The notes under the pieces: generated by a model
Seen by the model: the letters and a program-made list of their open reading frames with translations, nothing else
The model's database searches: none
What the model was told of the DNA's origin: nothing
Origin: an uncultured Planctomycetia bacterium
GTDB lineage: Bacteria > Omnitrophota > Gorgyraeia > Velamenicoccales > Velamenicoccaceae
Direction of reading: 5' to 3'
Assembly (NCBI GenBank): GCA_964622605.1
Contig: CAZUQR010000001.1
Coordinates: forward strand, 135,265 to 199,264
Length of the DNA: 64,000 bases
Translations under genes and position numbers: made by a program
In this document: in pieces, positions 6,250 through 24,570 of the stretch
Layout: each line of letters starts with the position of its first letter
Position numbering within the stretch: the stretch's first letter is position 1

Positions 6250-6345
6250 TGATTTGCGGGACGGGAGTGAGGGCAGATCATGCATTCTATTTTAGCCAAC
6301 GTTGCGTTATTGGGCGATCGCCGCTCGGACGGCGGGGAGGGGCAG

Positions 6346-7245
6346 ATGTCCGCAACAGTTACGCATAAGCCCGTTATGTGCGCCGAGGTGCTTGCGGCCC
6401 TGGCTCTCGAGCCGGGTGAGGTCGTCGTGGATGCGACGCTGGGGCTGGGCGGGCACGCCGCAGCACTCCTTCCCGAGATCGCCCCGGGGGGCCGCCTCAT
6501 CGGCATCGACAAGGACGAGGAGGCGCTCACGCTGGCCCGAGGCCGCCTCGAGCAATGGTCCGCGTGTTGTGATATCGTGCACGACGACTTCCGGCACCTG
6601 GAGCGGGTCCTGGACCGTTGCCGCGTGGACGGCATCGATGCGGCGCTCTTCGATCTGGGCGTCTCGTCCTACCAGCTGGAGACGCCCGAGCGCGGCTTCA
6701 GTTTTCAGGCCGAAGGGCCGCTCGACATGCGCATGGACCGCCACGGCTTCATCAGCGCCTATGATCTCGTCAATACCCTGACTGAAGAAGAGCTGGCCTC
6801 GATCCTTTATAAATTCGGCGAGGAGCGGTTCTCGCGCCGCATCGCGCACGCCCTGGTGGCGATACGCCGGCGCGCCCCCATCGCCTCGACCCGTCAGCTC
6901 GCCGATGTCGTCTGGAAGGCGACGCCGTTCAAGGCCCGGCGCCGGCGCCTTCATCCGGCCACGCGGACCTTCCAGGCCTTGCGCATCGCCGTGAACCGCG
7001 AGCTCGAGAGCCTGGACGAGGCGCTCAAGAAAGCGGCGGTCTATCTGAACAAGGGGGGACGCTGTGTGGTGATCGCGTTCCACTCCCTCGAAGACCGGAT
7101 CGTCAAAGAGAACTTCAAGGCCCTGGAGAAGACCGGGCGGTTCCGGCGCGTCGCCAAAAAGGTGGTGCGGCCGGCTGCTGATGAGGTGTGCGCCAATCCG
7201 CGCAGCCGCAGCGCGCGGCTGCGGGTGATAGAGAGGATCTCATGA
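6346..7245 (+). CDS. rsmH: 16S rRNA (cytosine1402-N4)-methyltransferase
   Basis: HKPVM, DATLGLGGH and FDLGVSSYQL motifs. Start chosen at ATG 6346 (GGAGGGG RBS, usual N-terminal length). The ORF track start at 6280 is the alternative. Confidence 0.9.
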   Translation: MSATVTHKPVMCAEVLAALALEPGEVVVDATLGLGGHAAALLPEIAPGGRLIGIDKDEEALTLARGRLEQWSACCDIVHDDFRHLERVLDRCRVDGIDAALFDLGVSSYQLETPERGFSFQAEGPLDMRMDRHGFISAYDLVNTLTEEELASILYKFGEERFSRRIAHALVAIRRRAPIASTRQLADVVWKATPFKARRRRLHPATRTFQALRIAVNRELESLDEALKKAAVYLNKGGRCVVIAFHSLEDRIVKENFKALEKTGRFRRVAKKVVRPAADEVCANPRSRSARLRVIERIS

Positions 7246-7625
7246 AGACGACGCGGTGTCTGGTCCTCACGGGATTGGTGACGGTCTTGTGCCTGTTGTA
7301 CGTCTTTCAGCAGACGCAGGTGCTCAAGCTGGCTTACCGGATCACCGCCGAGGAACAGAAGCTGGAGGCTGCCCAGGACCGGCGGACCGCCTTGGAGTTC
7401 GCCCTCTCGACGCTGGAGTCGCCGGTCAGCATCGAACAGAACTTCATGCTCCCCAACGGCAGCTTTGAGATGCCGAGTGCCTTCCGCCTGGTGAAGGTGG
7501 AAAGGCCCGCCGCCTCGGCCGCCGCGTTGAACGTGGCGACCTCCTCCACGTCCTCGGGCTGGCGCCGTTTTGCGTTTCGTTCCTTGTTTTCAGCCAGGCA
7601 GGCAGAAGCCCGGACCGTCAAGTAG
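7242..7625 (+). CDS. ftsL: Cell division protein FtsL-like
   Basis: ATGA overlap with rsmH. One N-terminal TM helix (LVLTGLVTVLCLLYVF) followed by a coiled-coil segment. Conserved position between rsmH and ftsI. Confidence 0.7.
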   Translation: MKTTRCLVLTGLVTVLCLLYVFQQTQVLKLAYRITAEEQKLEAAQDRRTALEFALSTLESPVSIEQNFMLPNGSFEMPSAFRLVKVERPAASAAALNVATSSTSSGWRRFAFRSLFSARQAEARTVK

Positions 7626-9359: not shown

Positions 9360-10825
9360 AGCCCAAATCCTTAGAGAGACTCCTTGCCGGATGTGCCGTC
9401 AAGGAGATCATCGGCAGCGAGGCCGGGGTGAACGTCGCTGCCATCACTACCGATTCGCGGCAGGTTGCGGCCGGCAGCCTCTTTGTGGCGGTCCGGGGGA
9501 CACGCCAGGATGGGCACCGCTTCTGCGCGGACGCGGTGCGCCGGGGCGCGGTCGTCCTTGTCGTGGAAAAAAAGGGTGCGTCTCTGCCGGGCCGCGGGGT
9601 CACGACGGTGCGCGTCGCGGATACGCGCAAGGCCCTGGAGCACCTCGTCCGCCTCTTTTATGAGGAGCCGCAAAAAAAGATATCCTGCGTCGGGGTGACC
9701 GGGACGAACGGCAAGACGACGACGACCTATTTGATACATAGCGTCCTGCGGGCCTCGGGGAGGCGTTGCGGCCTCCTGGGCACGACCGGTTATGATGTCG
9801 GCGCGGGGCTCGTGCGCATGAACAACACGACGCCGGGCCTCACGGAGCTCTACGCTATCCTCCATCGTATGGTCCGGGGCCGGTGCACCCACGTGGTCCT
9901 GGAGGTATCGAGCCACGCGCTCGACCAGGAGCGCGTCAAGGGGCTGGTCTTCAAAGAGGCCCTCTTTACCAATTTGACGCGGGACCACCTCGATTATCAC
10001 AAGACGATGTCCGCTTACTTTGCGGCGAAGAAGAGGCTCTTTGAAAAATACGTGGATGCTTCTTCGACGCGGATCGTCAATATCGACGACGCCTACGGCG
10101 CGCGCCTGAAAAAGACGGGAAGAGGGCGCCTCGTGACGTATGGTCTGTCGGCCGGGGCGGATATCCGGGGCGTTGTTAAGACAGAGGGCTGGGCCGGCAG
10201 CCGCCTGCGTGTCACCACCCGGCGGGGCCGCATGGATGTCTTCACCCCGCTGGTGGGCCGGCACAATGTCTACAATGTCCTGGCCGCGGTGGCGGCGGCC
10301 ACGGCCGAGGGGATCCCGGAGGCCGCCATCCGGCGCGGGATCGAGGCCTGCGGGACGGTTGCCGGCCGCCTGGAGCGGGTCAAGAACGACAGGGGGATAC
10401 ATGTCTTCGTGGACTACGCGCATACGGACGATGCGCTTAAAAATGTTCTTGAATCTTTGCGGCGTATTCCTCATAATGGCAACATCATAACGGTCTTCGG
10501 CTGCGGGGGCGACAGGGACCGCGGCAAGAGACCCAGGATGGGGCGCGTGGCGAGCCGCCTCTCCGATTATACGGTCGTGACCTCTGACAACCCGCGCACG
10601 GAAGACCCCGGTTCCATTATCCGGGCTATCCTGAAGGGTGTGGTGGGGAACCGCTGGGAGGTCGTTCTTGACCGGCGCCAGGCCATCGGACGGGCCTTCT
10701 CCAAGGCCCGGCGGGGGGATGTCGTCCTCATCGCGGGCAAGGGGCATGAGTCCTGCCAGATCGTCGGCAGCGCCGTGATCCCCTTTGACGACCGTGTCGT
10801 CGCGCGCGCGTTCCTGACACCATAG
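9356..10825 (+). CDS. murE: UDP-N-acetylmuramoyl-L-alanyl-D-glutamate--2,6-diaminopimelate ligase
   Basis: GVTGTNGKTTTTYL P-loop and the DNPR motif (VVTSDNPRTEDP), which is diagnostic of meso-DAP-adding MurE. Confidence 0.92.
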   Translation: MKPKSLERLLAGCAVKEIIGSEAGVNVAAITTDSRQVAAGSLFVAVRGTRQDGHRFCADAVRRGAVVLVVEKKGASLPGRGVTTVRVADTRKALEHLVRLFYEEPQKKISCVGVTGTNGKTTTTYLIHSVLRASGRRCGLLGTTGYDVGAGLVRMNNTTPGLTELYAILHRMVRGRCTHVVLEVSSHALDQERVKGLVFKEALFTNLTRDHLDYHKTMSAYFAAKKRLFEKYVDASSTRIVNIDDAYGARLKKTGRGRLVTYGLSAGADIRGVVKTEGWAGSRLRVTTRRGRMDVFTPLVGRHNVYNVLAAVAAATAEGIPEAAIRRGIEACGTVAGRLERVKNDRGIHVFVDYAHTDDALKNVLESLRRIPHNGNIITVFGCGGDRDRGKRPRMGRVASRLSDYTVVTSDNPRTEDPGSIIRAILKGVVGNRWEVVLDRRQAIGRAFSKARRGDVVLIAGKGHESCQIVGSAVIPFDDRVVARAFLTP

Positions 10826-10827
10826 AC

Positions 10828-12198
10828 ATGTTCAACATCAAAGATGTTGTGGCCGGGACTTGCGGGGTCTTGCGCCCGGGCGCGATCGCCAAGCGTTTTG
10901 GCGGCGTTGCCACCGATTCGCGCACGGCCAAAGAGACAGAGATCTTTTTTGCGCTCAAGGGACCCCGGTTCGACGGGCACGACTTCATCGGTCGGGCCGT
11001 CGCGGCCGGTTGCCGTGCGGTCGTGTATAGCGATGAGGCAAAGAGTGCGCCGCGGCACAAGGGCGTGGCGTACGTGCGCGTGGCCGACACCCTCGCGGCG
11101 CTCGGGGGGCTGGCCCACTTTCACCGCCGCCGCTTTGACATACCCGTCATCGCGGTGACCGGGTCCAACGGTAAGACGACGACGAAGGAGATGATCGCCC
11201 AGGTCCTGTCGGCCCGGTACCACGTCCTCAAGAACGCCGGGACGCAGAACAACCTGATCGGCGTGCCGTTGACGCTCCTCAAGATCCACTCGAAGCACGA
11301 CGTGTGCATCGTGGAGATGGGGACCAACAAGGTGGGCGAGATCGGGCGCCTCGCCGAGATCGCCGCACCGAACGTCGGCGTCATCACGAACATCGGCCCG
11401 GCGCACCTGGAGTTCCTCGGCAGTCTCCAGGGGGTGTACCGCGAGAAGATCGAGCTCGTCCGCCGGCTCGCCCCTCCGGGCATCGCGCTCATGAACCGCT
11501 GCGACCTGATCCTCGGAAAGCTGTGCCCTATCCGGACGAAGCCGGTCTTCTTCTTCGGCGTCAACCGTGAGGCGGAGTTCACGGCCTCCGAGGTGACGTA
11601 TCATCCGCGGAGCATCACGTTTTTGTATAACAGGCGGCAGGTCCTTGAGGTGAGGCACTCGGCGCTCCACAACGTCAGCAACGCCCTGGCCGCCGTCGGC
11701 TGCGGTGTCCTCTTCAGCATCGATATCCGGACGATCCGCGAGCGCCTGGCCGCCTTCGATGCGCCGGAGATGCGCCTCAAGGAGTTGCGCCTCAAAAACT
11801 GGACGGTCTTTGACGACACGTATAATTCCAATCCGCAGTCCCTCAAGCAGGCCATCGACGTCTTGTGCCGGCAGGAGGCGGGAGGCCGGCGCATCCTCAT
11901 CATGGGTGACATGCTGGAGTTGGGTCCCCAGACGAACGACTTCCACGCGTACTTCGGCCGCTACGTGGCGCGCAAGCCCATCGACATCCTGGTGACGATG
12001 GGCGGCCACGCCCGCCACACGGCCGAGACCGCCCGGCACAGCGGCATGAGCACGCAGGCCATCCACCATTTTCCGGGATGCCCTGAGGTCCTGGATTTCC
12101 TGGTGGAGACGCTGCGGCAAGGCGATGTCCTGCTCATCAAGGGGTCGCGCTCGATGCGGATGGAACAGATCGTCGATCATCTAAAAAAGACGGGATAA
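10828..12198 (+). CDS. murF: UDP-N-acetylmuramoyl-tripeptide--D-alanyl-D-alanine ligase
   Basis: AVTGSNGKTTTKEM P-loop, Mur ligase middle and C-terminal domains, conserved position after murE. Confidence 0.92.
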   Translation: MFNIKDVVAGTCGVLRPGAIAKRFGGVATDSRTAKETEIFFALKGPRFDGHDFIGRAVAAGCRAVVYSDEAKSAPRHKGVAYVRVADTLAALGGLAHFHRRRFDIPVIAVTGSNGKTTTKEMIAQVLSARYHVLKNAGTQNNLIGVPLTLLKIHSKHDVCIVEMGTNKVGEIGRLAEIAAPNVGVITNIGPAHLEFLGSLQGVYREKIELVRRLAPPGIALMNRCDLILGKLCPIRTKPVFFFGVNREAEFTASEVTYHPRSITFLYNRRQVLEVRHSALHNVSNALAAVGCGVLFSIDIRTIRERLAAFDAPEMRLKELRLKNWTVFDDTYNSNPQSLKQAIDVLCRQEAGGRRILIMGDMLELGPQTNDFHAYFGRYVARKPIDILVTMGGHARHTAETARHSGMSTQAIHHFPGCPEVLDFLVETLRQGDVLLIKGSRSMRMEQIVDHLKKTG

Positions 12199-12200
12199 CC

Positions 12201-13289
12201 ATGCTGTATCATCTCCTGGTCCCCCTCCGGGATCTCTTCGCCGGATTCAACGTCTTCCGCTACATCACCTTTCGCTCGGCCATGGCGGCGATCACGACCT
12301 TCTTCTTTTGCGTCATCTTCGGCGAGCGGCTCATCCGGCGCCTGGCCGCGCTCAAGGTCTGCGAGACGGTGCGGCCCAAAGAGGAGGTGCGCGGCCTGTA
12401 CGACCTGCATCACCACAAGGAGGGGACGCCCACGATGGGCGGGGTGATCATCGTCGGCGCGGTCGTGGCGGCCATGGTCCTGTGGGGGGATCTGGCGAAC
12501 CGGTACGTGCTTTTGACGTTGTTCGCGACGCTCTGGCTGGGGGTCGTAGGTTTCATCGACGATTACATCAAGCTGCGCTTCCGGCGCCGGGGCCTGAGCG
12601 TCAAGGCCAAGTTGCTGGGGCAGCTGCTCCTGGGGTTGACGCTGGGCGTCTTCGTGTATCTGGATCCCAACGTCCCCGCCACGCTCGATATCCCCTTCCT
12701 GAAGGACGCGGCGGTGCATCTCGGCGTCTTCTACGTCTTCTTCGTGATGCTCGTCGTCGTGGGGACCTCCAATGCGGTGAATCTCACCGACGGCCTGGAC
12801 GGCCTGGCCACGGGGTGCATCCTGATGGTGGCCTTTTCGTACGGCATCATGAGTTACCTCTCCGGTCACGCGCGCTTCAGCCAGTATCTCTTGATCCCCT
12901 ACATCGATGGCGTGGGGGAGCTCGCCGTCTTCTGCGCGGCCGTGGTCGGCGCCTGCCTGGGATTCCTGTGGTTTAACTGTTATCCCGCCGCGGTCTTCAT
13001 GGGGGACGTGGGGGCGTTGGCCCTGGGCGGCGCGATCGGCGTGGTGGCGGTCCTGATCAAGAAGGAGCTCTTGCTCGTGATCGTCGGCGGCGTCTTCGTC
13101 GCCGAGGTCGTATCGGTCATCGTGCAGGTGGCGTCTTTTAAATGGCGCAAGAAGCGCGTCCTGCGCATGGCGCCGCTGCACCACCATTTTCAAATGTTGG
13201 GTTGGGCGGAACCGAAGGTGATCGTCCGTTTCTGGATCATCGCGGCGATCCTCGCGTTCTTCACCCTGGCCACCCTGAAGCTCAGATGA
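12201..13289 (+). CDS. mraY: Phospho-N-acetylmuramoyl-pentapeptide transferase
   Basis: Polytopic membrane protein with KEGTPTMGGVII and NAVNLTDGLDGLA motifs. Confidence 0.95.
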   Translation: MLYHLLVPLRDLFAGFNVFRYITFRSAMAAITTFFFCVIFGERLIRRLAALKVCETVRPKEEVRGLYDLHHHKEGTPTMGGVIIVGAVVAAMVLWGDLANRYVLLTLFATLWLGVVGFIDDYIKLRFRRRGLSVKAKLLGQLLLGLTLGVFVYLDPNVPATLDIPFLKDAAVHLGVFYVFFVMLVVVGTSNAVNLTDGLDGLATGCILMVAFSYGIMSYLSGHARFSQYLLIPYIDGVGELAVFCAAVVGACLGFLWFNCYPAAVFMGDVGALALGGAIGVVAVLIKKELLLVIVGGVFVAEVVSVIVQVASFKWRKKRVLRMAPLHHHFQMLGWAEPKVIVRFWIIAAILAFFTLATLKLR

Positions 13290-14542
13290 CGTCCTATCAA
13301 GGCAAGCGCGTGACGGTGATCGGCTGTGCCCGCAGCGGCATGGCCGCGGCCCAACTGCTTCGGCGCCTGGGCGCCCGCGTCTTTGTCACGGAGAGCGCGA
13401 CATCCCCGGCCATCGCCGAGCGCTTTGAGGCCTTGGCCGCCGACGGCATCGAAGGCGAGAAGGGAGGCCATACCGAGGAGGCCCTCGCGGCGGCAGACCT
13501 CGCTGTCTTAAGCCCGGGCGTTCCCTTGGACGCCGCGCCGGTCCGCTGGGCCCGTGCGCGCGGGATCGAGGTCGCCAGCGAAATAGAATTGGCGGCCTCG
13601 GTGTGTCGGGCGCCGATCATCGCCGTGACGGGGACCAACGGCAAGACGACCACCACGACCCTGATCGGTCTCGTGGTGCGCGCGTGGGGCCGCCGGGCGC
13701 ACATCCTGGGCAACATCGGTTCGCCGTTTTCTCTTTGCGCCGATCAGATCGAACCCGAAGACTTCGTGTGCCTTGAGGTGAGCTCTTTTCAGCTGGAGAC
13801 GATCCGGAGGTTCAGGCCCCGCGTGGCCGTTGTCCTCAATCTGACGCCGGACCATCTGGACCGTTATCCCGACATGGCGGCGTACCTTGAGGCGAAGAAG
13901 CGCATCACCATGAATCAGGGGGCCGAGGATTGGCTCGTTTTGAATCACGGCGAGAAGCGCCTGCGTCCTCTCACCGGTGCCACGCGGGCGCGCGTCGTTT
14001 TTTTTAATAAGGGACCGCAAGGGGCGCGGCTTGACGAGAACCAGATGGCGGTGCGGACGGTGGCGGGTTGCCTGGGCATCCCGCAGGAAAAATGCGACGA
14101 GGTCTTCGCCGCCTTCACGGGCGTCGAGCACCGTTTGGAGTTCGTGCGCACACTCGACGGTATCGACTTCATCAACGACTCCAAGGCCACCAATATCGAT
14201 TCGACGGCGTGGGCGCTTAAGAACGTGCGCCGGCCTGTGGTCCTGATCGTCGGCGGCCGCGACAAGGGCAGCGACTTCGGTCGCATCGCGCCCCTGGTGC
14301 GCGCCAAGGCAAAGGCCGCCGTCGTCGTCGGGGAGGCCGCCGAGCGCATCGCAGCCGCGTGGCAGGGCGTCCTGCCCATCCGCCGCGCCGCCGCCTTTGA
14401 CGAGGCGGTCACGGTCGCCTTTGGTCAGGCCCGCGCGGGCGAATGCGTCTTGTTGTCGCCGATGTGCAAGAGCTTTGACATGTTCACGGACTACGAGCAC
14501 CGCGGCCGCGTCTTCAAGGAGCTCGTGGCGCAGCTGAAGTAA
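13286..14542 (+). CDS. murD: UDP-N-acetylmuramoylalanine--D-glutamate ligase
   Basis: Internal ATG 13286 (ATGA overlap with mraY). N-terminus KRVTVIGCARSGMAAA and P-loop AVTGTNGKTTTTTL. Confidence 0.92.
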   Translation: MTSYQGKRVTVIGCARSGMAAAQLLRRLGARVFVTESATSPAIAERFEALAADGIEGEKGGHTEEALAAADLAVLSPGVPLDAAPVRWARARGIEVASEIELAASVCRAPIIAVTGTNGKTTTTTLIGLVVRAWGRRAHILGNIGSPFSLCADQIEPEDFVCLEVSSFQLETIRRFRPRVAVVLNLTPDHLDRYPDMAAYLEAKKRITMNQGAEDWLVLNHGEKRLRPLTGATRARVVFFNKGPQGARLDENQMAVRTVAGCLGIPQEKCDEVFAAFTGVEHRLEFVRTLDGIDFINDSKATNIDSTAWALKNVRRPVVLIVGGRDKGSDFGRIAPLVRAKAKAAVVVGEAAERIAAAWQGVLPIRRAAAFDEAVTVAFGQARAGECVLLSPMCKSFDMFTDYEHRGRVFKELVAQLK

Positions 14543-14736: not shown

Positions 14737-15831
14737 ATGCGACGATTACGGATCTCCATTTTTGTCACGACGTTCATCCTGATCTGTATCGGCGTCGTGA
14801 TGATCTACAGCGCAAGCTGTGTCACGGCGTGGCAGAGCTCGGGTGAGAGCACGCAGCTGTTGCGCAAGCAGGCGCTCTTTGTCCTCTTCGGGTCCCTCGC
14901 GATGTTCGGCGTGATGGCGATGGACTACCGCGCGCTCAAGAAGGTCGCCAAGCCGCTGTTCCTCCTTTCGCTGCTGCCGCTGGTCGTCGTCCTCCTGCCG
15001 GGGGTCGCGCATGAGGCGGGCGGGGCCAAGAGGTGGCTGAGCCTGGGCGGCTTCAACTTTCAGCCGTCGGAGTTCATCAAGGTCGCGCTCGTCATCTACC
15101 TGGCGGATTTTATCACCCGGCGGGCGCCGTACCTGAAAGACTTCTGGAAGGGGTTTGTTCCGCCGATGACGGTGCTGGGCGCATCGGTCCTGCTGATCCT
15201 GCTCCAGCCGGACCTGGGGACCGCCGTTTCGCTCGTGGTCCTGACCTTCGCGATGCTCTTCGTGGCGGGCTGCCGGATGCGGCACATCTTGTACAGTATC
15301 CTGGCGGCGCTGCCGGCATTGTATTTTTTGATCTTCAGCGTCCCGTATCGGCGGGCCCGGATCATGATCTTTCTGAACCCCTGGCTCGATCCCAAGGGCA
15401 GCGGTTTCCAGATCATCCAGTCGCAGATCGCCCTGGGGACGGGAGGCTGGTGGGGTGTGGGCCTGGGGCAGGGCAGGCAGAAGCTTTTTTACCTGCCGGC
15501 GGCGCACACCGATTTTATCTTTTCGATCATCGGCGAGGAGCTGGGGCTCCTGGGCACGGGATGCGTGATCTTACTCTTTGTCTATCTCATCATCAGCATG
15601 GCCCGCGTCGCGTGGCAGGTCCGTGATCCCTTCGGCAAGATGATCTGTGTCGGCGTCCTGGTCCTCATCGCCTTTTCCTCGGCGATCAATATCGGTGTCT
15701 CGATGGGCGCGCTGCCCACGAAGGGGCTGCCGCTTCCCTTTATCAGCTACGGCGGATCGTCGCTCATCTTTCACATGATCGCCGTGGGGTTGTTGTTGAA
15801 CGTTTCGCGGGCCGAGGAGACGGTCTTGTGA
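14737..15831 (+). CDS. ftsW: SEDS peptidoglycan glycosyltransferase FtsW
   Basis: Ten-TM SEDS protein (QPSEFIK, QPDLGT, GGSSL motifs) in the murD-ftsW-murG position. Confidence 0.9.
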   Translation: MRRLRISIFVTTFILICIGVVMIYSASCVTAWQSSGESTQLLRKQALFVLFGSLAMFGVMAMDYRALKKVAKPLFLLSLLPLVVVLLPGVAHEAGGAKRWLSLGGFNFQPSEFIKVALVIYLADFITRRAPYLKDFWKGFVPPMTVLGASVLLILLQPDLGTAVSLVVLTFAMLFVAGCRMRHILYSILAALPALYFLIFSVPYRRARIMIFLNPWLDPKGSGFQIIQSQIALGTGGWWGVGLGQGRQKLFYLPAAHTDFIFSIIGEELGLLGTGCVILLFVYLIISMARVAWQVRDPFGKMICVGVLVLIAFSSAINIGVSMGALPTKGLPLPFISYGGSSLIFHMIAVGLLLNVSRAEETVL

Positions 15832-16898
15832 AGACGCCGGGTTCAAGACCCATCGTGGTCGTGGCCGGCGGCAGCGGCGGCCACATCTTTGCGGCCGTCA
15901 GCTTCTGCCAGGAGTTCGTCGGGCGCCGGGGCGTCGCGGTGGACATCACCTTCGTGACCCAAGAAGGCAAGGAGGCGTTGACCGCTCAACTGCCGTCTTC
16001 GTGCGCGGTCGTCCCCGTTGAGGTCGACAGGAGCTTTGGGGGCGCGGCCCGGCTCTTCAAGGAGGCCCGGCGGCTGCTGGGTCGCCTTCGGCCGGCGTGG
16101 GTGGTTGGTTTCGGCGGATTCATGACCGTGCCGTTTGTCGCGGCCGCCAAGATGCGCGGGTGCCGGGTGATGATCCATGAGCAGAACGCCGTTGCCGGTC
16201 GGGCCAACCGACTCCTGGCGTTCGTTGCGGATACGATGGCCGTGACCTTTGAGGCGACGCGCCGGCACGCGGCGCCGGTCCTGCGCCGGAAGATCGTGGT
16301 GACAAGATTTCCCTTGAGACAGGGCCTGAAGGTCCTCGATGCGGATGCCGCGCGCCGGTCATTTGGTTTCGATGAGACGCGTTCTACACTTTTGGTATTA
16401 GGGGGCAGTCAGGGCGCCCAGAGACTCAACGAGTGCGTCCCCGAGGCCTTGGGAAAGAGCGGTATCGCGGACCGCGTTCAGGTCATCCATCTGTGCGGCC
16501 GCGGTGACCCGCAGGCGTTGACACAGCGCTACGGACATTGGCGCGTCCCAAGCCGCGTCGTGAAGTTTTTGAACGAGATGGAGCGCGCGTACAGCGCCGC
16601 GGACCTCGTCGTCAGCCGCGCGGGCAGCGGCGTCCTCCATGAGCTGCTTTATTTCGGCGTGCCGAGCATCCTGATCCCGTACCCCCACGCGGGCGGCCAT
16701 CAGGTCGCCAACGCCCGGGCGCTGGCGATGCAGGGGGCGGCCTTGATGCTGGAGGAGGGGCGCCTGGAGGCCGGCGCGCTGGGGCCGCTGCTGAGGATCC
16801 TTATTACCGACGGGATGCGGCGAAGGGTCATGGCAACGGCGGCGCGCCGGATGTACGCCCAGGGGGCGGCGTTGAGCCCGGTGGAGCTTGTGTCATGA
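15828..16898 (+). CDS. murG: UDP-N-acetylglucosamine--N-acetylmuramyl-(pentapeptide) pyrophosphoryl-undecaprenol GlcNAc transferase
   Basis: GGSGGHIFAAV G-loop, GGSQGA and HQVANA motifs. GTGA overlap with ftsW. Confidence 0.92.
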   Translation: MKTPGSRPIVVVAGGSGGHIFAAVSFCQEFVGRRGVAVDITFVTQEGKEALTAQLPSSCAVVPVEVDRSFGGAARLFKEARRLLGRLRPAWVVGFGGFMTVPFVAAAKMRGCRVMIHEQNAVAGRANRLLAFVADTMAVTFEATRRHAAPVLRRKIVVTRFPLRQGLKVLDADAARRSFGFDETRSTLLVLGGSQGAQRLNECVPEALGKSGIADRVQVIHLCGRGDPQALTQRYGHWRVPSRVVKFLNEMERAYSAADLVVSRAGSGVLHELLYFGVPSILIPYPHAGGHQVANARALAMQGAALMLEEGRLEAGALGPLLRILITDGMRRRVMATAARRMYAQGAALSPVELVS

Positions 16899-17698
16899 GG
16901 GTGTGGATGCTTGCGTTTCTCATCGTCTTTTGCCTGGCGCCGGCGGCGCGGGGTGCGGTGGAGTTTGAGGAGACCAAGAGCCGTCACTTCATCGTTTATC
17001 ACGAAGAAGGGGTGGGTAGGGATTTCGTGGAGGCGACCATCGAATTCGCCGAGAGGTATTATGGAGAGTTGACCGAGAAACTCGGCTTCGTCCGGTACGA
17101 CTACTGGACGTGGGACGACCGGGCCAAGATCTATATCTACGCCGACCAGGGGTCTTATATGGAGGATACCGGTCAGCCGGCGTGGTCCGGGGGCCTGGCG
17201 GCGTATCACGAGAAGACCATCCGGGTCTTTCCGCGCGGCGCCGGGTTCTTCGACGCGCTCCTGCCGCATGAGCTCGGCCATATCGTCTTTCATGAAGTCA
17301 TCGGCAGCCATGTCGTGCCCACGTGGTTGGATGAGGGGGTGGCCTGCTATTTGGAGCCGGCCCGCCGCTTCGGTTCGCAGAAGATGGCCCTCGATGCCAT
17401 CGAGGACGGCACGTTCATCCCGCTCAAGGAACTCCACGAGATGGATCCCCGCGAGCTGGCGGATGACGACCAGGTCGAGCTCTTTTACGCCGAGTCGGTG
17501 AGCCTGCTTACCTTCATCGTCGAGACATTCGGCATCGACCGCTTTAACGCGGTATGCGACAAGATCAAGGAGGGCCGGACGTTTGAAAGGGCCGTCAAGT
17601 CTTGTCTTTTCGGCGTCCAGGACCTCGAGGACCTGGCCCGGATGTGGGAGGATTCGTTGAAGAAGAAGGACAGCCCCACGCGCCGGACCATGCTATGA
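16895..17698 (+). CDS. Secreted MA-clan (gluzincin) metallopeptidase-like protein
   Basis: Signal peptide MRVWMLAFLIVFCLAPAARGA. HExxH (LPHELGHIVFHE) with a downstream WLDEGVACYLE glutamate, the Peptidase_MA_2-like arrangement. ATGA overlaps with both murG and murC. Confidence 0.65.
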   Translation: MRVWMLAFLIVFCLAPAARGAVEFEETKSRHFIVYHEEGVGRDFVEATIEFAERYYGELTEKLGFVRYDYWTWDDRAKIYIYADQGSYMEDTGQPAWSGGLAAYHEKTIRVFPRGAGFFDALLPHELGHIVFHEVIGSHVVPTWLDEGVACYLEPARRFGSQKMALDAIEDGTFIPLKELHEMDPRELADDDQVELFYAESVSLLTFIVETFGIDRFNAVCDKIKEGRTFERAVKSCLFGVQDLEDLARMWEDSLKKKDSPTRRTML

Positions 17699-19065
17699 CA
17701 TCCCTTCCTTTTCGCCGCATCCATTTTGTCGGCATCGGCGGCATCGGCGTCAGCGGCGTGGCCCGGCTGGCGATGAAGGCCGGCGTGCGGGTCTCGGGCT
17801 CGGACGTGAAGGAGTCCGCCGTGACGCGCCGTCTGGCCGCCGGCGGCGCCTCGGTCGTCATCGGCCACCGCGCAGAGAACATCGAGGGCGCGGACCTCGT
17901 CGTCTATTCCTCCGCCATCAAGGCGGATAACCCCGAGCTGGTCGCCGCGCGCACCCGGCGCATCCCCATCAAGAAAAGGGCCGAATTCCTGTGCGACCTG
18001 ATGGCCGCCAAGACCGTCATCTCGGTGGCCGGCGCCCACGGCAAGACCACGACATCGTCCCTGGCGGCCACGCTTCTTTCGGCAGCGGGCCTGTGTCCGA
18101 CGGTTGCGGTCGGCGGCATCCTGCGTGCGGACCAGGATAACGTGCGCTGCGGAGAGAGTCCCTTCTTCGTGGCCGAGGCCGATGAGAGCGACGGCACGTT
18201 CCTGTGCTACACGCCGACGTATTCGCTCGTGACGAACATCGATCACGAGCACCTGGATTATTACAAGACGTACGACAACCTCCTGCATGCCTTTTCGGCC
18301 TTCATGAAGCAGACGGCGCCGGCAGGGTGCGTCATCGCCTGCCGCGACGACGCGGCGCTCCATGAATTGGCGGCGCACAACGCCCCGCGCCTCGTGACGT
18401 ACGGATTTTCAAAAGAGGCCGACCTTTCTATCGGGCGCTACGCCGCGGTCGAGCGGTCCATCCGTTTTACCTGCGCGTATCGCGGCAAGCCGCTGGGGAG
18501 CTTCGGCGTGTCCCTGTGCGGCCGGCACAATGCCCTCAACGCCTCGGCGGTGATCGCGCTGGGCCTGGAGCTGGGGCTGGAGCCCGACGTGATCCGAGGT
18601 GCCCTGGCGTCTTTTCAGGGCGTCGAGCGGCGCTTCCAGATCCGCCATGAGGACAAAGACCTCATGATCGTGGACGACTATGGGCATCATCCCACGGAGA
18701 TCGCCGCGACCCTCGAGGGCGCCCGGGCGTGCGCGCGCAAGCGTCTTGTCGTGGTCTTTCAACCGCACCGCTATACCCGGACGCAGGCTTTGATGGATTC
18801 CTTCGCGCGCTGTTTTGCGTTGTGCGACCGTCTTCTCGTGACGGACATCTACGCGGCGAGCGAAGACCCCATCGAGGGCGTGACCGCCGAGAACCTCGTC
18901 GAGCGCATCAGGGAGAAGACGCCGTGTCCCGTCACGTACGTGTCCCGCGAAGGCCTCCTGGAGCGGGTCCGGGCGACGGTCCGGCCCGGGGACCTCGTCG
19001 TGTTCCTGGGGGCGGGGGATATCACAAAGGCCAGCGATGAGTTTGCGCACCTCTTTAAGGAATAA
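17695..19065 (+). CDS. murC: UDP-N-acetylmuramate--L-alanine ligase
   Basis: Internal ATG 17695. N-terminus RRIHFVGIGGIGVSGVA and P-loop VAGAHGKTTTSSL. Confidence 0.92.
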   Translation: MTSLPFRRIHFVGIGGIGVSGVARLAMKAGVRVSGSDVKESAVTRRLAAGGASVVIGHRAENIEGADLVVYSSAIKADNPELVAARTRRIPIKKRAEFLCDLMAAKTVISVAGAHGKTTTSSLAATLLSAAGLCPTVAVGGILRADQDNVRCGESPFFVAEADESDGTFLCYTPTYSLVTNIDHEHLDYYKTYDNLLHAFSAFMKQTAPAGCVIACRDDAALHELAAHNAPRLVTYGFSKEADLSIGRYAAVERSIRFTCAYRGKPLGSFGVSLCGRHNALNASAVIALGLELGLEPDVIRGALASFQGVERRFQIRHEDKDLMIVDDYGHHPTEIAATLEGARACARKRLVVVFQPHRYTRTQALMDSFARCFALCDRLLVTDIYAASEDPIEGVTAENLVERIREKTPCPVTYVSREGLLERVRATVRPGDLVVFLGAGDITKASDEFAHLFKE

Positions 19066-19945
19066 GGTCCGTCACAACGTGGCCCTGGCCGGCCGGAATT
19101 ACTTCAGGATCGGCGGCCGGGCGCGGTGGTGGTTGGAGCCGGCCAGCGTGCGGGCGCTGGGCGCCTTCCTGCGCGAACGCGACAAGAGTGTGGACCTTTT
19201 CGTCCTCGGCGCGGGCAGCAACGTCTTGTTCGACGATGCCACGATCCGCAAGGTCTTCGTCTGCCTCCAGGCGCCGGCCTTTGCCAAGATCTGCGTCCGG
19301 GGCCGGCGGGTCACGGTGGGTGCCGGCGTGCGCATCGGCCGTCTCATCTCGGTCCTCTCAAAGTTCGATCTGGGCGGTCACGAATTTCTGGCAGGGATAC
19401 CCGGAACGATCGGCGGCGCCCTCGTGATGAACGCCGGGGCGCGCCGTTGTCAGGACGACCCCCGGACCTACCGCGAGATGCGGGACGTCGTGGTGTCCGT
19501 GGATACGCTGGACCGCTCGGGCCGTTTTTGCACCCTGCGGCGCGAAGAGATCGACTTCGGCTATCGGCAGACGTCGCTGGCCCCGATGATCGTCACCGGC
19601 GCGACGCTCGCGTTGCGTCCGGCCCGCCGGCGCCGCGTCACGCGGGAGATCGGCCGCATCCTGGGCTGGCGCTTCGTCCACCAGGACTGGCTCTTTCCGA
19701 GCGCCGGGAGCTTTTTCAAGAATCCGCCCGGAGACGCGGCCGCCCGCCTGATCGACGGCTGCGGCCTCAAGGGGCTTGCGGTGGGCGCCGCGCAGGTGAG
19801 CCCGCGCCACGCCAACTTCATCATCAATACGGGCCACGCGCGCTTCACCGATGTGACAAAGCTCGTGGAAATCATCCAGGAAAGAGTGTATAATCATTTT
19901 CGTGTTCGATTGGAGCCCGAGGTGATGATTGTGCGCGCAACCTAA
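19037..19945 (+). CDS. murB: UDP-N-acetylenolpyruvoylglucosamine reductase
   Basis: FAD-binding domain (FRIGGRARWW, GAGSNVLF) and MurB C-terminal domain (SAGSFFKNP). Confidence 0.9.
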   Translation: MSLRTSLRNKVRHNVALAGRNYFRIGGRARWWLEPASVRALGAFLRERDKSVDLFVLGAGSNVLFDDATIRKVFVCLQAPAFAKICVRGRRVTVGAGVRIGRLISVLSKFDLGGHEFLAGIPGTIGGALVMNAGARRCQDDPRTYREMRDVVVSVDTLDRSGRFCTLRREEIDFGYRQTSLAPMIVTGATLALRPARRRRVTREIGRILGWRFVHQDWLFPSAGSFFKNPPGDAAARLIDGCGLKGLAVGAAQVSPRHANFIINTGHARFTDVTKLVEIIQERVYNHFRVRLEPEVMIVRAT

Positions 19946-20855
19946 AAGAGTCGGCGTGGTGATGGGCGGTTTGTCGTCGGAGCGCGACATCTCGCTCAAG
20001 AGCGGCCGGGCCGTCTTGAACGCCCTGAAAGATGCCGGATGGCAGGCGTTGTCCCTCGAGGTCCTCGAGGAGACGCAAGAGGAGATCCAGCGTCTCGTGC
20101 GTGAGGCCGCCGTCGACGTCGTCTTCGTGGCGATGCACGGCGGGTTCGGAGAAGACGGCCGCCTCCAGAAGATCCTGGAAGACATGCGCGTGCCGTTTAC
20201 CGGTCCGGCCCGGGAGGCGAGCCGTCTGGCCATGGACAAGGTCGCGTCCCGCCGGATCTTTGAAGGGGCGGGCCTGCGCGTCCCGCGCACCCGCGTCATC
20301 CGGCGCGGATACCGGATGATGTCCTTGTTGCACGGATTGCGGTATCCCGTCGTCATCAAGCCCGCGGCCCAGGGATCGAGCATCGGCGTCTCGTTCGTGT
20401 CTCATTGGAAGGAGTTGTCCTGCGCCGTCCTCAAGGCGCTTCGTTATGACGACACCGTCCTGGTCGAGGAGTTTATCGAAGGCCGGGAGATCACGGTCTC
20501 CGTCCTGGACGGCACGGCCCTGCCGATCGTAGCCATCATCCCCAAAAAGGATTTTTTTGACTTTCAGGCCAAGTACGAGAAGGGGATGACCGAATACGTC
20601 GTCCCGGCCCCCCTGGAGGCCCAGGTCACCGAGCGCGCCCGGCAGGACGCGGTCACGGCGTATCACGCCCTGGGCTGCCGGCACCTCGCCCGCGCGGACA
20701 TGATCCTGAACGAAGAAGGGCGGGCCGTGATCCTCGAGGTCAACACCGTTCCGGGCCTCACCGAGACGAGCCTCCTTCCGAAGGCGGCCCGGGCCGCGGG
20801 ATTGGAGTTTGCGTCGTTGTGCACGAAGATCGTCGAGCTGGCCTTGAATTCTTAG
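19929..20855 (+). CDS. ddl: D-alanine--D-alanine ligase
   Basis: TTG start. VGVVMGGLSSERDISLKSG followed by an ATP-grasp fold (EVNTVPGLT). Confidence 0.9.
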   Translation: MCAQPKRVGVVMGGLSSERDISLKSGRAVLNALKDAGWQALSLEVLEETQEEIQRLVREAAVDVVFVAMHGGFGEDGRLQKILEDMRVPFTGPAREASRLAMDKVASRRIFEGAGLRVPRTRVIRRGYRMMSLLHGLRYPVVIKPAAQGSSIGVSFVSHWKELSCAVLKALRYDDTVLVEEFIEGREITVSVLDGTALPIVAIIPKKDFFDFQAKYEKGMTEYVVPAPLEAQVTERARQDAVTAYHALGCRHLARADMILNEEGRAVILEVNTVPGLTETSLLPKAARAAGLEFASLCTKIVELALNS

Positions 20856-20963: not shown

Positions 20964-21773
20964 ATGGCCCGATACAGACACAAGAGGAGATGGAAAGGCG
21001 GACCCGTCTTCTTACTCGTTATCTTACCTTTATTGGCCCTGGCGCTGTCAGGCCTTGCCCTTTACAAGGGGATCCGCTATTATCTGACGTCCTCGGAATA
21101 CTTTTGCGTCCGCGAGGTCACGGCCCTGGGCGTCGCGGACCATCGTTACGTCCAGATGATCCGTGACGAGCTGATCGGCGCGAATATCTTCAAGGTGGAC
21201 GTCGTGCGGCTCGCCCAGCGTATCCGCCGCAAGTTCCCGACGTTTTATGAGGTGCGCGTGCGGCGCATCCTGCCTTCGGAGCTGCGCATCGTCGCCGATG
21301 AGCGTGTCCCCGTGGCCGTGGTGAAGAAGGAACGCTATTACCTTTTTGATGCCGAGGGCGTGGCGCTCTCCGTCGTCGCCTCTCCCGAGGCCGTTCGCCT
21401 GCCCCTGGTGGAGGGGGGGATCGACCGTCTCCCAAAGATCCAGAGCGGCTTTCGTTACGGGCAAGCGGACCTGCGCAAGGCCCTGAGCCTGGCCGGGGCC
21501 ATCGAGCGTCAGGGCACGAGCCTCGTCCGGCACATGCCGGAGGCAGGACAGCGCGTGAGCAAGATCGTCGTCGGCCCCGGCGGACGGCTTTCGTTTTATC
21601 TGGGTGACGACCTGGAGGTGAAGGTGCGGGACCGTCGCTTCGACGAGCAGCTGGACCTTCTGCCGGCGATCATCAAGGACCTCGGACCGGACATCGGTGA
21701 GGTGGCGTATCTGGATTTGAGGCCGAGGGAGCCCGTCGTGGGCATGAAATCGGGGGGCAGGAGAGGCCGATGA
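20964..21773 (+). CDS. ftsQ: Cell division protein FtsQ
   Basis: Basic N-terminus, single TM helix (VFLLVILPLLALALSGLALY), POTRA-like region, conserved position before ftsA. Confidence 0.75.
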   Translation: MARYRHKRRWKGGPVFLLVILPLLALALSGLALYKGIRYYLTSSEYFCVREVTALGVADHRYVQMIRDELIGANIFKVDVVRLAQRIRRKFPTFYEVRVRRILPSELRIVADERVPVAVVKKERYYLFDAEGVALSVVASPEAVRLPLVEGGIDRLPKIQSGFRYGQADLRKALSLAGAIERQGTSLVRHMPEAGQRVSKIVVGPGGRLSFYLGDDLEVKVRDRRFDEQLDLLPAIIKDLGPDIGEVAYLDLRPREPVVGMKSGGRRGR

Positions 21774-23023
21774 AGAACAGGTGGAGGCCGCGACTCGCCG
21801 GCCCCGGATATGTCTTCGCGCTGGATATCGGATCAAAGAAGGTGGCGCTCGCCGCAGCCAGGACAGCGGCGGCTGACCCCGACGCGGAGTTCCTCATCGA
21901 GACAGCCCCCGTCAAGGGGATCTTTAAAGGGGTGGTCAATGACCTGGCCGCCCTATCTGACGTCGTCGCAGAGGTGGTGGGGCGCATGGAGGCTCAGACG
22001 GGACACAAGGTCCTCCAGGCCTCTGTGAGTATCAACGGTAACTATATCGCCTCACGCCGGAGTCACGTCGCCATGGCCCTCTCCGAGCGGGGGACGCGTT
22101 CCATCACGCGCCGCGATCTGGCGTATCTGTCCGACCAGGCGCGGTTGCTGGGGACGGAGCTGGATGAGGTCCTGATCCACGAGATCTCTCAGGGATATTC
22201 GATCGACCGCCACCCCAGGACACATCATCCTTTGGGGTTGTACGGACGGCGCCTGGAGACCGAGGTGCTGGTGGTGACGGCGCCATATGCTCACATCAGC
22301 AACGTGGTGAAGGCGGTGGAGCGCGTCGGCGTGGACGTGGCCGAGGTGCGCGCGGCGAGCCTGGCGGCGGCCGAGGCCGTCCTGAACCAGGAAGAGAAGG
22401 AGCGCGGCGTCGTGCTGATAGATATCGGCGACACGCTCACGGGCGTCGTCGTCTTCCAGGAGGGCAAGGCGTGTTCTGTGCGCGTTCTGCCCTTCGGGGG
22501 CCGCAACCTCGGGGAGATCATCGCGAATTATTGTCACGTGACGATGGAGGTGGCCGAGACCATTGCCCGGGAGGCGCTCGAGATCGACGCCGAGCCGCAG
22601 GAGTCCGACGCGGTCATGATCCGCGCCGAGGGGATGTTCCGGCCCGTCTCCAAGAGAGACCTCGTCGGAGTCGTGGTCTCGGAGATGGATAAGTTCGTGT
22701 CGCTTCTCCACGACGCCGTGGCCGAGCCCCGCGCCTTGACGCGTCCCGGCATGTCGGTCGTCGTGACCGGCGGCCTGAGCCTGGTCCAAGGCCTGCTCGA
22801 AAAGCTGGAGCAGGACCTCTCGCTGTCGGTGCGCCTGGGCGTGCCGCGGGGGATGGCGCACGTGCCGGTCTCCCGGTCCATTACCTGCGCCGCCGCCGCG
22901 GGCCTGGTGGGGCGCTGCCGTTCGGCCGCCGGCGGACAGGCGCCTTTTCTCCTTCAGGAGTCAAGGAATAAAGTGGCCCGCCTGGTCGACTCCATCAAGA
23001 ATCTTTATCAGGACTATTTTTGA
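21770..23023 (+). CDS. ftsA: Cell division protein FtsA
   Basis: Actin-fold ATPase (ALDIGSKKVALAAA, LIDIGDTLTG, VVTGGLSLVQGL) with a C-terminal amphipathic tail VARLVDSIKNLYQDYF. ATGA overlap with ftsQ. Confidence 0.88.
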   Translation: MKNRWRPRLAGPGYVFALDIGSKKVALAAARTAAADPDAEFLIETAPVKGIFKGVVNDLAALSDVVAEVVGRMEAQTGHKVLQASVSINGNYIASRRSHVAMALSERGTRSITRRDLAYLSDQARLLGTELDEVLIHEISQGYSIDRHPRTHHPLGLYGRRLETEVLVVTAPYAHISNVVKAVERVGVDVAEVRAASLAAAEAVLNQEEKERGVVLIDIGDTLTGVVVFQEGKACSVRVLPFGGRNLGEIIANYCHVTMEVAETIAREALEIDAEPQESDAVMIRAEGMFRPVSKRDLVGVVVSEMDKFVSLLHDAVAEPRALTRPGMSVVVTGGLSLVQGLLEKLEQDLSLSVRLGVPRGMAHVPVSRSITCAAAAGLVGRCRSAAGGQAPFLLQESRNKVARLVDSIKNLYQDYF

Positions 23024-23035
23024 CAAGGTTGGGAC

Positions 23036-23740
23036 GTGATCCGCAATAATTTTATCTCTTGCCGCGAGCGGATCGCCCGGGCGGCCGAGCATAGCGGTCG
23101 TGACCCGGCGGGCGTGGCGCTGGTGGCTGTGACCAAAGGGGTGGATGCCGCGCGCATCGAGGAGGCGATCCTGGCCGGGGTGGGGCAGATCGGCGAAAAC
23201 CGTCTCCAGGAAGCCCTTTCGAAATATGAACGGCTCCGCCGTTTCGCCCAGGAACACGGCACGGTGCTGGGCTGGCACCTTGTCGGACACCTCCAGACCA
23301 ACAAGGCCCGGGAGGCGGTCCGTTTGTTTGACGTGATCCACTCCGTGGACAGCCTGCGCGTGGCCGAGGCGATCGAACGACACGCGGCCCGGAGGAATAA
23401 GGTGCAGGAGGTCATGCTCGAGGTGAACGTCTCGGGCGAGAGCTCCAAGTACGGCTTGCGTGTCCCCGAGGTGGCAGAGGTGCTGTCTGTGATAGGGACA
23501 CGGTCTCACATCCGCGTCACCGGCCTGATGACGGTCGCGCCTTTTGTGGATGACACAGAGCGCGTCCGGCCCGTTTTTCGACGTCTCCGGGAGCTTCGGG
23601 ACGAACTCAACGGTCATCGGCAGGCGCAGCTCAGGCTTCGGGAACTATCGATGGGCATGACGGATGACTTCGAGGTGGCGGTCGAGGAAGGCGCCACCTG
23701 CGTGCGGCTGGGACGGGTCCTCTTCGGAGAAAGAACATGA
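23036..23740 (+). CDS. yggS: YggS/YlmE-family PLP homeostasis protein
   Basis: GTG start. LVAVTKG (PLP lysine), GENRLQE, GHLQTNK and ELSMGMTDDFEVAVEEG motifs. Confidence 0.88.
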   Translation: MIRNNFISCRERIARAAEHSGRDPAGVALVAVTKGVDAARIEEAILAGVGQIGENRLQEALSKYERLRRFAQEHGTVLGWHLVGHLQTNKAREAVRLFDVIHSVDSLRVAEAIERHAARRNKVQEVMLEVNVSGESSKYGLRVPEVAEVLSVIGTRSHIRVTGLMTVAPFVDDTERVRPVFRRLRELRDELNGHRQAQLRLRELSMGMTDDFEVAVEEGATCVRLGRVLFGERT

Positions 23741-24570
23741 GCGGTAAAGACGTCACCATCGGGATCGTCGGCTGCGGCAACATGGGCGCGGCGTTCACGT
23801 CCTCTATTTCGCGCCACCTGCCTCAATGGGGTATCATCCTTTATGACATCGACACGGCCAGGCAGGAAGGGGTCGTGCGTCGCCTCGGCGGCCGCGGTGC
23901 GTCTTCGCTCGAGGATCTGATCGAGGCGAGCGCCGTCGTTCTCATTGCCGTCAAGCCTCAGGATATCGATCCGGTCCTCGCGGCGGCGCGGGGCCGGCCC
24001 CGGAAACTCGTCATCTCCATCGCCGCCGGCATCCCTTTGACCTATCTCGAAAGGGCCTTGGCCGGAGGCGCGGTCGTGCGGGCGATGCCGAATCTCAACG
24101 CCCTGATCGGCCGCAGCGTGACGGCTCTCTCTTTTGGTCCGTCCGTGAGCGCCCCCCATCAGGCGCTCGCCAAAATGGTCCTTGAGGCCGTGGGTGCGGT
24201 CGTCGTGGTTCCGGACGGGCAGATGAATGCCGTGACGGCTGTCTCGGGCAGCGGTCCGGCCTTCGTCGCCTACCTGAAAGATGTCGTGCCGGCTGACGAG
24301 ATTGCGCGGGTCATGATCAAGGCGGCACAGGAGCTTGGTATCGAGAAAGGGACGGCCCAACGCCTGGCCCACGCGACGGTGTCGGGGACGCTGGCTATCT
24401 TGTCGGTCAACTTTGACGCGCCGACGCTCATCAAGCGCGTCTCCTCCAAGGGCGGCACCACGGAAGCGGGCATGGACCTTTTGGAAAATGAGGGCAAGAC
24501 GCCTCAGGCCCTGATAGCGGCGATCCATGCGGCGTGCCGCCGGGCCGGGGAGCTATCGAAGGAGCATTGA
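23737..24570 (+). CDS. proC: Pyrroline-5-carboxylate reductase
   Basis: IGIVGCGNMG Rossmann motif and the C-terminal SKGGTTEAG signature. Confidence 0.9.
   Translation: MSGKDVTIGIVGCGNMGAAFTSSISRHLPQWGIILYDIDTARQEGVVRRLGGRGASSLEDLIEASAVVLIAVKPQDIDPVLAAARGRPRKLVISIAAGIPLTYLERALAGGAVVRAMPNLNALIGRSVTALSFGPSVSAPHQALAKMVLEAVGAVVVVPDGQMNAVTAVSGSGPAFVAYLKDVVPADEIARVMIKAAQELGIEKGTAQRLAHATVSGTLAILSVNFDAPTLIKRVSSKGGTTEAGMDLLENEGKTPQALIAAIHAACRRAGELSKEH

Follow-up and report, generated by a model that had tools for sequence, protein, structure and literature searches.

A collinear dcw cluster without ftsZ and with a remodelled FtsA in the phylum Omnitrophota

When the gene that follows ftsA in a division operon is something other than ftsZ, has ftsZ been moved to another place in the chromosome, or does the lineage divide without it, as some bacteria of the PVC group do? 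To our knowledge, FtsZ is nearly universal in bacteria, the known exceptions being Chlamydiota and Planctomycetota. The question is raised by a stretch of 64,000 nucleotides (hereafter, the window) located on contig 1 of a 1.92-Mb, 43-contig genome that is 94.3% complete and 1% contaminated, for which an earlier note, made from the sequence alone, had pointed out that ftsA gives way to yggS/ylmE after 12 bp. The host lineage belongs to Omnitrophota (OP3), a PVC phylum, and to the same family as Ca. Velamenicoccus archaeovorus, whose strain LiM (complete chromosome) encodes an FtsA with 47% identity to that of the window; the nearest FtsA loci were found in MAGs labelled Candidatus Omnitrophota or Omnitrophica, some of them carrying the label "uncultured Planctomycetia".

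Published accounts of FtsZ in this phylum are in conflict. Omnitrophica were listed together with Planctomycetes and Chlamydiae as FtsZ-less by Pende et al. (2021; Nat Commun 12:3214), who further described Planctomycetes and Chlamydiae as lacking SepF and FtsA, which implies that Omnitrophica keep FtsA; the figure legend and text of that study on these lineages treat neither the sequence of the Omnitrophica FtsA nor the synteny, the loss of partners or the mechanism. Conversely, Omnitrophica had been counted as FtsZ-bearing by means of "Omnitrophica bacterium OLB16", the absence of the gene in two other genomes being left open (Rivas-Marin et al., 2016), and a more recent work grouped Omnitrophota with the FtsZ-bearing phyla as having highly conserved dcw genes, and inferred a canonical division for the PVC ancestor (iScience 2025). 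In the main text of a study on Omnitrophota genomics, FtsZ, the divisome and MreB are unmentioned (Seymour, 2023). According to the NCBI taxonomy, OLB16 (taxid 1617433) is now Candidatus Hinthialibacteria bacterium OLB16 of the phylum Ca. Hinthialibacterota; the sole reported FtsZ-bearing "Omnitrophica" is therefore removed, and the conflict in the literature explained. That FtsZ has been lost in the phylum was thus known before, from a passing mention in the cited passages of Pende et al. (2021), whereas we found in the literature no description of the remodelled FtsA, either as a loss of its docking residue or as deletions of its 2B subdomain.

In this work, we combined a reading of the locus with whole-genome searches and comparative analyses of FtsA across the phylum. 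We consider it probable that Omnitrophota lost ftsZ in place and retained, under selection, an FtsA devoid of the FtsZ-docking residue, and we infer for them an FtsZ-independent division in which FtsA would serve as a hub and MreB-RodZ as a scaffold.

The dcw cluster and the ftsA-yggS junction

The features of the window on which the analysis rests are as follows, with the coordinates counted from its first nucleotide:

5332..5775, plus strand: mraZ, the first dcw gene (Pfam MraZ, 126.8 bits)
5797..6162, plus strand: PilZ-domain gene of 121 aa, an extra gene between mraZ and rsmH (Pfam PilZ, 45.5 bits)
6280..7245, plus strand: rsmH (mraW) (TIGR00006, 323.6 bits)
7188..7625, plus strand: putative FtsL-like bitopic ORF (assigned by position and architecture, without a family match)
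7662..9359, plus strand: ftsI, divisome class B PBP (SpoVD/FtsI/PBP2-type matches, 494 bits)
9356..14542, plus strand: murE, murF, mraY and murD (NCBIfam equivalogs, above their cut-offs)
14737..15831, plus strand: ftsW (TIGR02614, 421 bits, cut-off 337.5)
15828..16898, plus strand: murG (TIGR01133, 227.8 bits, the best match and slightly under the 250-bit cut-off)
16895..17698, plus strand: secreted HExxH zinc peptidase (Peptidase_MA_2), between murG and murC (PF13485, 63 bits)
17602..20855, plus strand: murC, murB and ddl (TIGR01082, NF010480; Dala_Dala_lig)
20964..21773, plus strand: ftsQ (Pfam FtsQ_DivIB_C, 35.9 bits, and POTRA_1; N-terminal transmembrane segment)
21770..23023, plus strand: ftsA (TIGR01174, 203.4 bits, cut-off 175.85; Pfam FtsA and SHS2_FTSA, 51.5 bits)
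23024..23035, plus strand: ftsA-yggS spacer of 12 nt, where most bacteria have ftsZ (direct sequence reading)
23036..23740, plus strand: yggS/ylmE, PLP-binding protein (TIGR00044, 174.6 bits, cut-off 106.25; Pfam Ala_racemase_N, 80.8 bits)
23737..24570, plus strand: proC (P5CR_dimer and F420_oxidored)
32815..37976, plus strand: mreB, mreC, mreD, mrdA (PBP2) and rodA, the elongasome (NCBIfam; mreB 511-525 bits)

Compared with the canonical dcw order (mraZ-rsmH-ftsL-ftsI-murE-murF-mraY-murD-ftsW-murG-murC-(murB)-ddl-ftsQ-ftsA-ftsZ), the cluster is collinear from mraZ to ftsA, ftsZ is missing, and the PilZ and Peptidase_MA_2 genes are added. The earlier note had described the cluster as otherwise complete and canonical, a description that stands for the order mraZ to ftsQ-ftsA and falls short for the gene content, given these two insertions. 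The putative FtsL-like product has a single transmembrane segment and, after it, a stretch resembling a coiled coil, and its true start is probably the ATG near 7239.

At the junction itself, the TGA stop codon of ftsA occupies positions 23021-23023, the spacer reads CAAGGTTGGGAC, and the GTG at 23036 opens a 234-aa ORF; with TIGR01174 on one side and TIGR00044 on the other, both above their cut-offs, the succession of ftsA and yggS/ylmE without an intervening ftsZ is as originally noticed. The genes yggS, proC and yggT are commonly found 3' of ftsZ in other bacteria, and here, as the earlier note had also remarked, yggS and then proC lie directly 3' of ftsA, with a PNP-family phosphorylase gene and ileS downstream of proC. 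The complete MreB/MreCD/PBP2/RodA system ascribed to the same window corresponds to the genes at 32815-37976.

Searches for ftsZ and the history of its locus

FtsZ was searched for with profiles run on whole genomes translated in six frames. The sample comprised the window's own genome, a set of 41 relatives from 16 families of its class, and a phylum set of 201 genomes drawn evenly across Omnitrophota (138 genera; 151 genomes at least 90% complete), with two single-contig genomes among those searched, namely G016, from the window's family, and G175. Except for a few closed ones, these genomes are metagenome- or single-cell-derived, and the absence of ftsZ is accordingly stated for the sampled members rather than for every Omnitrophota. 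For comparison, an outgroup of 30 genomes from other phyla was picked via a 16S motif.

With the tubulin/FtsZ GTPase model PF00091, the own genome, the 41 class relatives and the 201 phylum genomes were all negative. As positive controls, 13-14 of 14 reference genomes were matched by the same models, and FtsZ was detected in 28 of the 30 genomes from other phyla, the unmatched ones being a planctomycete of the Brocadiales, for which this was expected, and Lentisphaera marina (G240). In the latter, PF00091 found nothing and TIGR00065 recovered, with 31 bits, a degenerate FtsZ-like ORF of 350 aa (L297:1228-2280, minus strand) in which neither of the usual signatures, GGGTG(S/T)G and the N-terminal GxGGGG, is present; the score of this organism with the FtsA model is also low (141 bits), and it may represent one more lineage of the PVC group whose FtsZ is degenerate or non-canonical. 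Since this ORF was missed by PF00091 and caught by TIGR00065, divergent FtsZs exist in PVC bacteria and TIGR00065 is the more sensitive of the two models; therefore, it was run on all 201 Omnitrophota genomes. At E<=0.1, the only matches obtained had 16 bits or less and occurred in 11 of the 201 genomes, including 4 of 4 genomes of one genus (ORFs of ~350 aa); all but one were confined to the glycine-rich N-terminal motif, the exception lying in an 1801-aa frame. Two of these weak matches were opened and rejected as FtsZ, one being a GAPDH (L301) and the other a ThiF/MoeB-like protein (L299), with only the glycine-rich nucleotide-binding motif covered. At the permissive threshold of E<=10, neither the full-length FtsZ model TIGR00065 nor PF13809, the model of FtsZ-like family 1, matched anything in five genomes, i.e., the own genome and four high-quality relatives, one of them a single-contig genome of the same family. 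ftsZ is missing from the genome of the window and from all sampled Omnitrophota.

In a single genome, such an absence may be explained by an ftsZ that is present on an unassembled or unbinned contig or relocated in the chromosome: the genome of the window is a 43-contig draft with 94.3% completeness, and ftsZ does lie apart from ftsA in a few outgroup genomes, e.g., those of Caulobacteraceae and Nitrospirales. Nevertheless, the gene was found in none of the 201 genomes of the phylum set (completeness of 90% or more in 151), nor in the single-contig G016 and G175, and the same searches were positive in 28 of 30 genomes of other phyla, and we regard a hidden or relocated ftsZ as extremely improbable. 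The earlier note had offered two readings, a displaced ftsZ or a lineage that divides without it like some PVC bacteria, had proposed an FtsZ profile search of the whole genome with a check of its completeness, and had given the finding of a normal ftsZ at another place in the genome as the outcome that would count against it. That outcome was searched for and not found; the first reading is contradicted by the six-frame searches of the own genome and the phylum set, and the second one is supported by the lack of any FtsZ or tubulin match in the own genome, the 41 relatives and the 201 phylum genomes.

A different explanation is that a cryptic, extremely divergent protein of the tubulin/FtsZ fold, beyond the reach of the profiles, forms the division ring. 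The ORF of L. marina, invisible to PF00091 and scored at 31 bits by TIGR00065, gives this explanation some plausibility; however, TIGR00065 was negative at E<=10 in all five high-quality genomes, PF13809 found nothing, all but one of the matches at E<=0.1 across the 201 genomes covered just the glycine-rich motif, and the two that were opened belonged to Rossmann-fold enzymes. Further, as described below, FtsA in this phylum lacks the outgroup-invariant Arg300, some lineages lack all of subdomain 2B, and ZapA, MinC, MinD and SepF were not found. Taken together, a cryptic FtsZ seems to us very unlikely, if slightly less so than a hidden one.

As for how the gene disappeared, the order murG-peptidase-murC-murB-ddl-ftsQ-ftsA-(gap)-yggS-proC-PNP-ileS is kept in relatives down to 44% FtsA identity, with an ftsA-yggS gap that ranges from 0 to 5 kb. 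The longer gaps (0.2 to 5 kb) are filled by unrelated insertions, as in L015:7216-8642 (1.4 kb), L004:7213-9695 (2.5 kb) and L003:7210-12294 (5 kb), and the inserts encode an amino-acid permease, a further permease and an ACR3-like arsenite transporter, as well as a lipoprotein, a DUF134-like protein and a small Smr-like protein. The gap DNA was also considered as an ftsZ remnant or a tubulin-like gene and discarded as such, its content being permease, small-protein and transporter/arsenic-resistance-like genes; between ftsA and yggS, the relatives have a hot spot of insertion. In another 40 Omnitrophota loci, which belong to different families and classes, the gene after ftsA is yggS, proC or yggT, or otherwise an unrelated one (e.g., pilT-like or gcvT-gcvH), and in 21 of 25 outgroup loci the ORF after ftsA opens with the FtsZ signature (...IKVIGVGGGG...). 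Because yggS, proC or yggT adjoin ftsA at the place where the outgroups have ftsZ, these arrangements fit a clean in-place deletion of ftsZ in the ancestor of the phylum, with local rearrangements occurring later.

FtsA retained and remodelled

The FtsA model matched 200 of the 201 phylum genomes and all 151 high-quality ones, with E values from 1e-16 to 1e-98 and scores above the cut-off in only 92 of the 201, and ftsA adjoins ftsQ in every locus examined. Calculated against the closest relatives, the dN/dS of the window ftsA is 0.16-0.20, and that of the neighbouring genes 0.12-0.32; FtsA is under purifying selection, with a dN/dS equal to or below that of the neighbouring essential mur genes. 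The 1C insert and the 2B subdomain are both present in the protein of the window, which ends in an amphipathic tail (...LVDSIKNLYQDYF), within which ...NKVARLVDSIKNLYQDYF is predicted to be helical (H401-416) and constitutes a putative membrane-targeting helix; a comparable C-terminal amphipathic tail is displayed by 54 of 54 Omnitrophota FtsAs, nearly all of them ending in YF. An AlphaFold model of the window FtsA was of moderate confidence, with a mean pLDDT of 63 and a pTM of 0.67, being good in the 2A/2B half and poor in the 1C region, and its top 17 Foldseek matches were all FtsA structures (7Q6G, 7Q6D, 7Q6I, 4A2A and 3WQT; E ~1e-19 to 1e-14, TM 0.55-0.66), as were the top phmmer matches in the PDB.

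In E. coli FtsA, Arg300 and Glu303, which we take to be the equivalents of Arg301 and Glu304 of T. maritima FtsA, reportedly form the salt bridges that hold the C-terminal peptide of FtsZ in subdomain 2B. An alignment of 54 Omnitrophota FtsAs and 26 FtsAs of bacteria that have FtsZ, taken from many phyla, was numbered after E. coli via 7Q6D, and the clearest differences lie at three positions:

Arg300: Arg in 25 of 26 outgroup sequences and in 0 of 54 Omnitrophota sequences (Glu 20, Lys 6, Ser 5, Tyr 4, others); Glu in the window
Glu303: Glu or Asp in 25 of 26 outgroup sequences and in 17 of 54 Omnitrophota sequences; Lys in the window
Asp242: Asp in 25 of 26 outgroup sequences and in 3 of 54 Omnitrophota sequences; Ile in the window

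Given its reported docking role and the conservation pattern measured here, the FtsZ-docking residue Arg300 appears to have been lost from Omnitrophota FtsAs. Moreover, in seven FtsAs picked as short ORFs (331-361 aa; L282-L288, from G051, G216, G044, G071, G150, G089 and G034) and belonging to several families, the 2B core is absent, with 4-14 aligned residues vs 56, and the ...YF tail is kept; a matching shortened FtsA HMM alignment was obtained in at least 19 of the 201 phylum genomes. Judged by these alignments, the whole 2B subdomain is deleted in some Omnitrophota lineages. In general, the fraction of outgroup-conserved residues retained is 0.48 in 2B vs 0.57-0.59 in the other subdomains; 2B being only slightly worse than the rest, FtsA is therefore divergent throughout, and the loss of Arg300 constitutes the strongest signal.

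The nucleotide-binding motifs are also affected. The phosphate-1 motif (DxGxxK) is kept as D19, G21 and K24, and the phosphate-2 loop (residues 218-224, ~22421-22441) reads DIGDTLT, where FtsA, MreB and Hsp70 typically have DIGGGT(T), the Gly214 of phosphate 2 being Gly in 22 of 26 outgroup FtsAs vs 0 of 54 Omnitrophota FtsAs. The loop of actin itself is of the GD type, and hence this alteration need not abolish ATP binding.

The remaining division machinery and a candidate mechanism

The search for FtsZ partners suggested in the earlier note was carried out on the own genome and four relatives (G016, G010, G012 and G033), and ZapA, SepF, MinC, MinD and FtsE (equivalog) were found in none of the five. 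Sub-threshold ZapA and SepF matches (13-18 bits) were discarded, as they lay inside long unrelated ORFs; the top FtsE matches (~214 bits, cut-off 264.85) were 650-700-aa frames that we read as fused MacB-like ABC transporters, and the top MinD matches (at most 94 bits, cut-off 212.9) were other ATPases of the ParA/MinD superfamily. FtsB, FtsK and RodZ, on the other hand, are each present in 5 of 5 of these genomes. The lipid II pathway is complete, and FtsQ, FtsB, the putative FtsL-like ORF, FtsW, FtsI and FtsK are retained, together with two actin-like proteins, namely FtsA and MreB, the latter accompanied by MreC, MreD, RodZ, PBP2 and RodA. Among 121 sampled phylum genomes, MreB was found in 119, with ~510-530 bits in 117.

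In the five genomes, the RodZ match (RodZ_C, 48-60 bits) follows that of the FtsK motor domain on the same strand, ~1.1-1.4 kb downstream, which suggests a conserved ftsK-rodZ pair; in the own genome the pair is located outside the window, at C1:106609-108481. FtsK and RodZ are key players in the FtsZ-less division of chlamydiae.

Three known systems provide a frame for this gene set. Chlamydiota, also of the PVC group, resemble Omnitrophota in having no FtsZ and no Min or Zap proteins and in keeping MreB, RodZ, FtsK, FtsQ, FtsW, FtsI and the lipid II pathway. They differ in having lost FtsA too, according to the listings of Pende et al. (2021) and to iScience 2025, whereas in Omnitrophota FtsA is found in 200 of 201 sampled genomes and evolves under purifying selection. 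A Chlamydia-type divisome is one where MreB, RodZ and FtsK organise the synthesis of septal peptidoglycan in the absence of both FtsZ and FtsA, and here FtsA is present and selected. Planctomycetota, in which cells bud or undergo binary fission and the dcw genes are non-essential, share with Omnitrophota the membership of the PVC group, the absence of ftsZ and an otherwise recognisable dcw set; however, they have lost ftsA and ftsB and, in several orders, most mur genes, with a fragmented cluster (iScience 2025), while here mraZ to ftsA are collinear and ftsB is present. Finally, the FtsA-FtsZ proto-ring of E. coli and T. maritima (7Q6D, 4A2A) is matched in the FtsA fold, the 1C and 2B subdomains, the C-terminal amphipathic helix and the operon place after ftsQ, and departed from in the lack of FtsZ, in the changes of Arg300 to Glu, Glu303 to Lys and Asp242 to Ile, and in the replacement of DIGGGT by DIGDTLT.

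Because no ftsZ occurs in the sampled phylum and FtsA is without the residue that would hold FtsZ, Omnitrophota probably divide without FtsZ. In E. coli, FtsA is also a hub or activator for FtsQLB-FtsWI. For Omnitrophota we conjecture that septal peptidoglycan synthesis by FtsWI would be organised without a Z-ring, that the membrane-bound FtsA, freed of FtsZ, would still serve as a hub in the cytoplasm for the recruitment or activation of FtsQLB-FtsWI, and that MreB-RodZ, possibly with FtsK, would give the positional scaffold normally provided by the Z-ring, as in Chlamydia. If the loss of ftsZ is a true one, we take this two-part arrangement of an FtsA hub and an MreB-RodZ scaffold, possibly with FtsK, to be the most likely solution, and would give it about an even chance.

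As the main alternative, division could be FtsZ-free and Chlamydia-like, driven by MreB-RodZ and FtsK, with FtsA as a mere accessory or used outside division. The far better conservation of MreB (~510-530 bits in 117 of 121 genomes) than of FtsA (above the cut-off in 92 of 201), the presence of RodZ and FtsK with adjoining genes, and the deletion of subdomain 2B in some lineages would all agree with an MreB-led division. An accessory FtsA is, however, at odds with its occurrence in 200 of 201 genomes and beside ftsQ wherever the locus was examined, with a dN/dS of 0.16-0.20 that is no higher than that of the neighbouring essential mur genes, and with the C-terminal membrane tail of 54 of 54 sequences. 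In addition, Chlamydiota and Planctomycetota, as listed by Pende et al. (2021), lost FtsA along with FtsZ, and its retention here therefore points to a selected role. On balance, we consider a Chlamydia-like division with an accessory or otherwise employed FtsA rather unlikely, and favour the arrangement in which FtsA acts as a hub beside the MreB-RodZ scaffold. In a more specific form, which we advance tentatively and with less than even confidence, Omnitrophota would represent a third, independent type of FtsZ-less division, where FtsA was retargeted as a membrane-bound organiser or activator of FtsQLB-FtsWI, its docking site was rewritten and, in some families, its 2B subdomain deleted; if true, the downstream signalling of FtsA would be separable from FtsZ in nature.

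A phylum with a collinear dcw operon and a selected FtsA, and with no FtsZ, constitutes a natural experiment in which the two roles of FtsA, namely the tethering of FtsZ and the signalling to FtsQLB-FtsWI, could be told apart, with the practical limit that Omnitrophota are uncultured or available in enrichments only. Evolutionary scenarios in which Omnitrophota divide with FtsZ in the canonical way call for revision.

Regarding the two genes inserted in the cluster, the 121-aa PilZ-domain protein (5797-6162) is a possible c-di-GMP receptor. The peptidase (16895-17698) displays a signal-peptide-like N-terminus and the motif HELGH at residue 125, and its gene is present at the same site in every related locus that extends that far, with 49-81% identity; its dN/dS of 0.21-0.26 indicates purifying selection, and this embedded HExxH peptidase may have a function in the cell wall or in division that is specific to the lineage.
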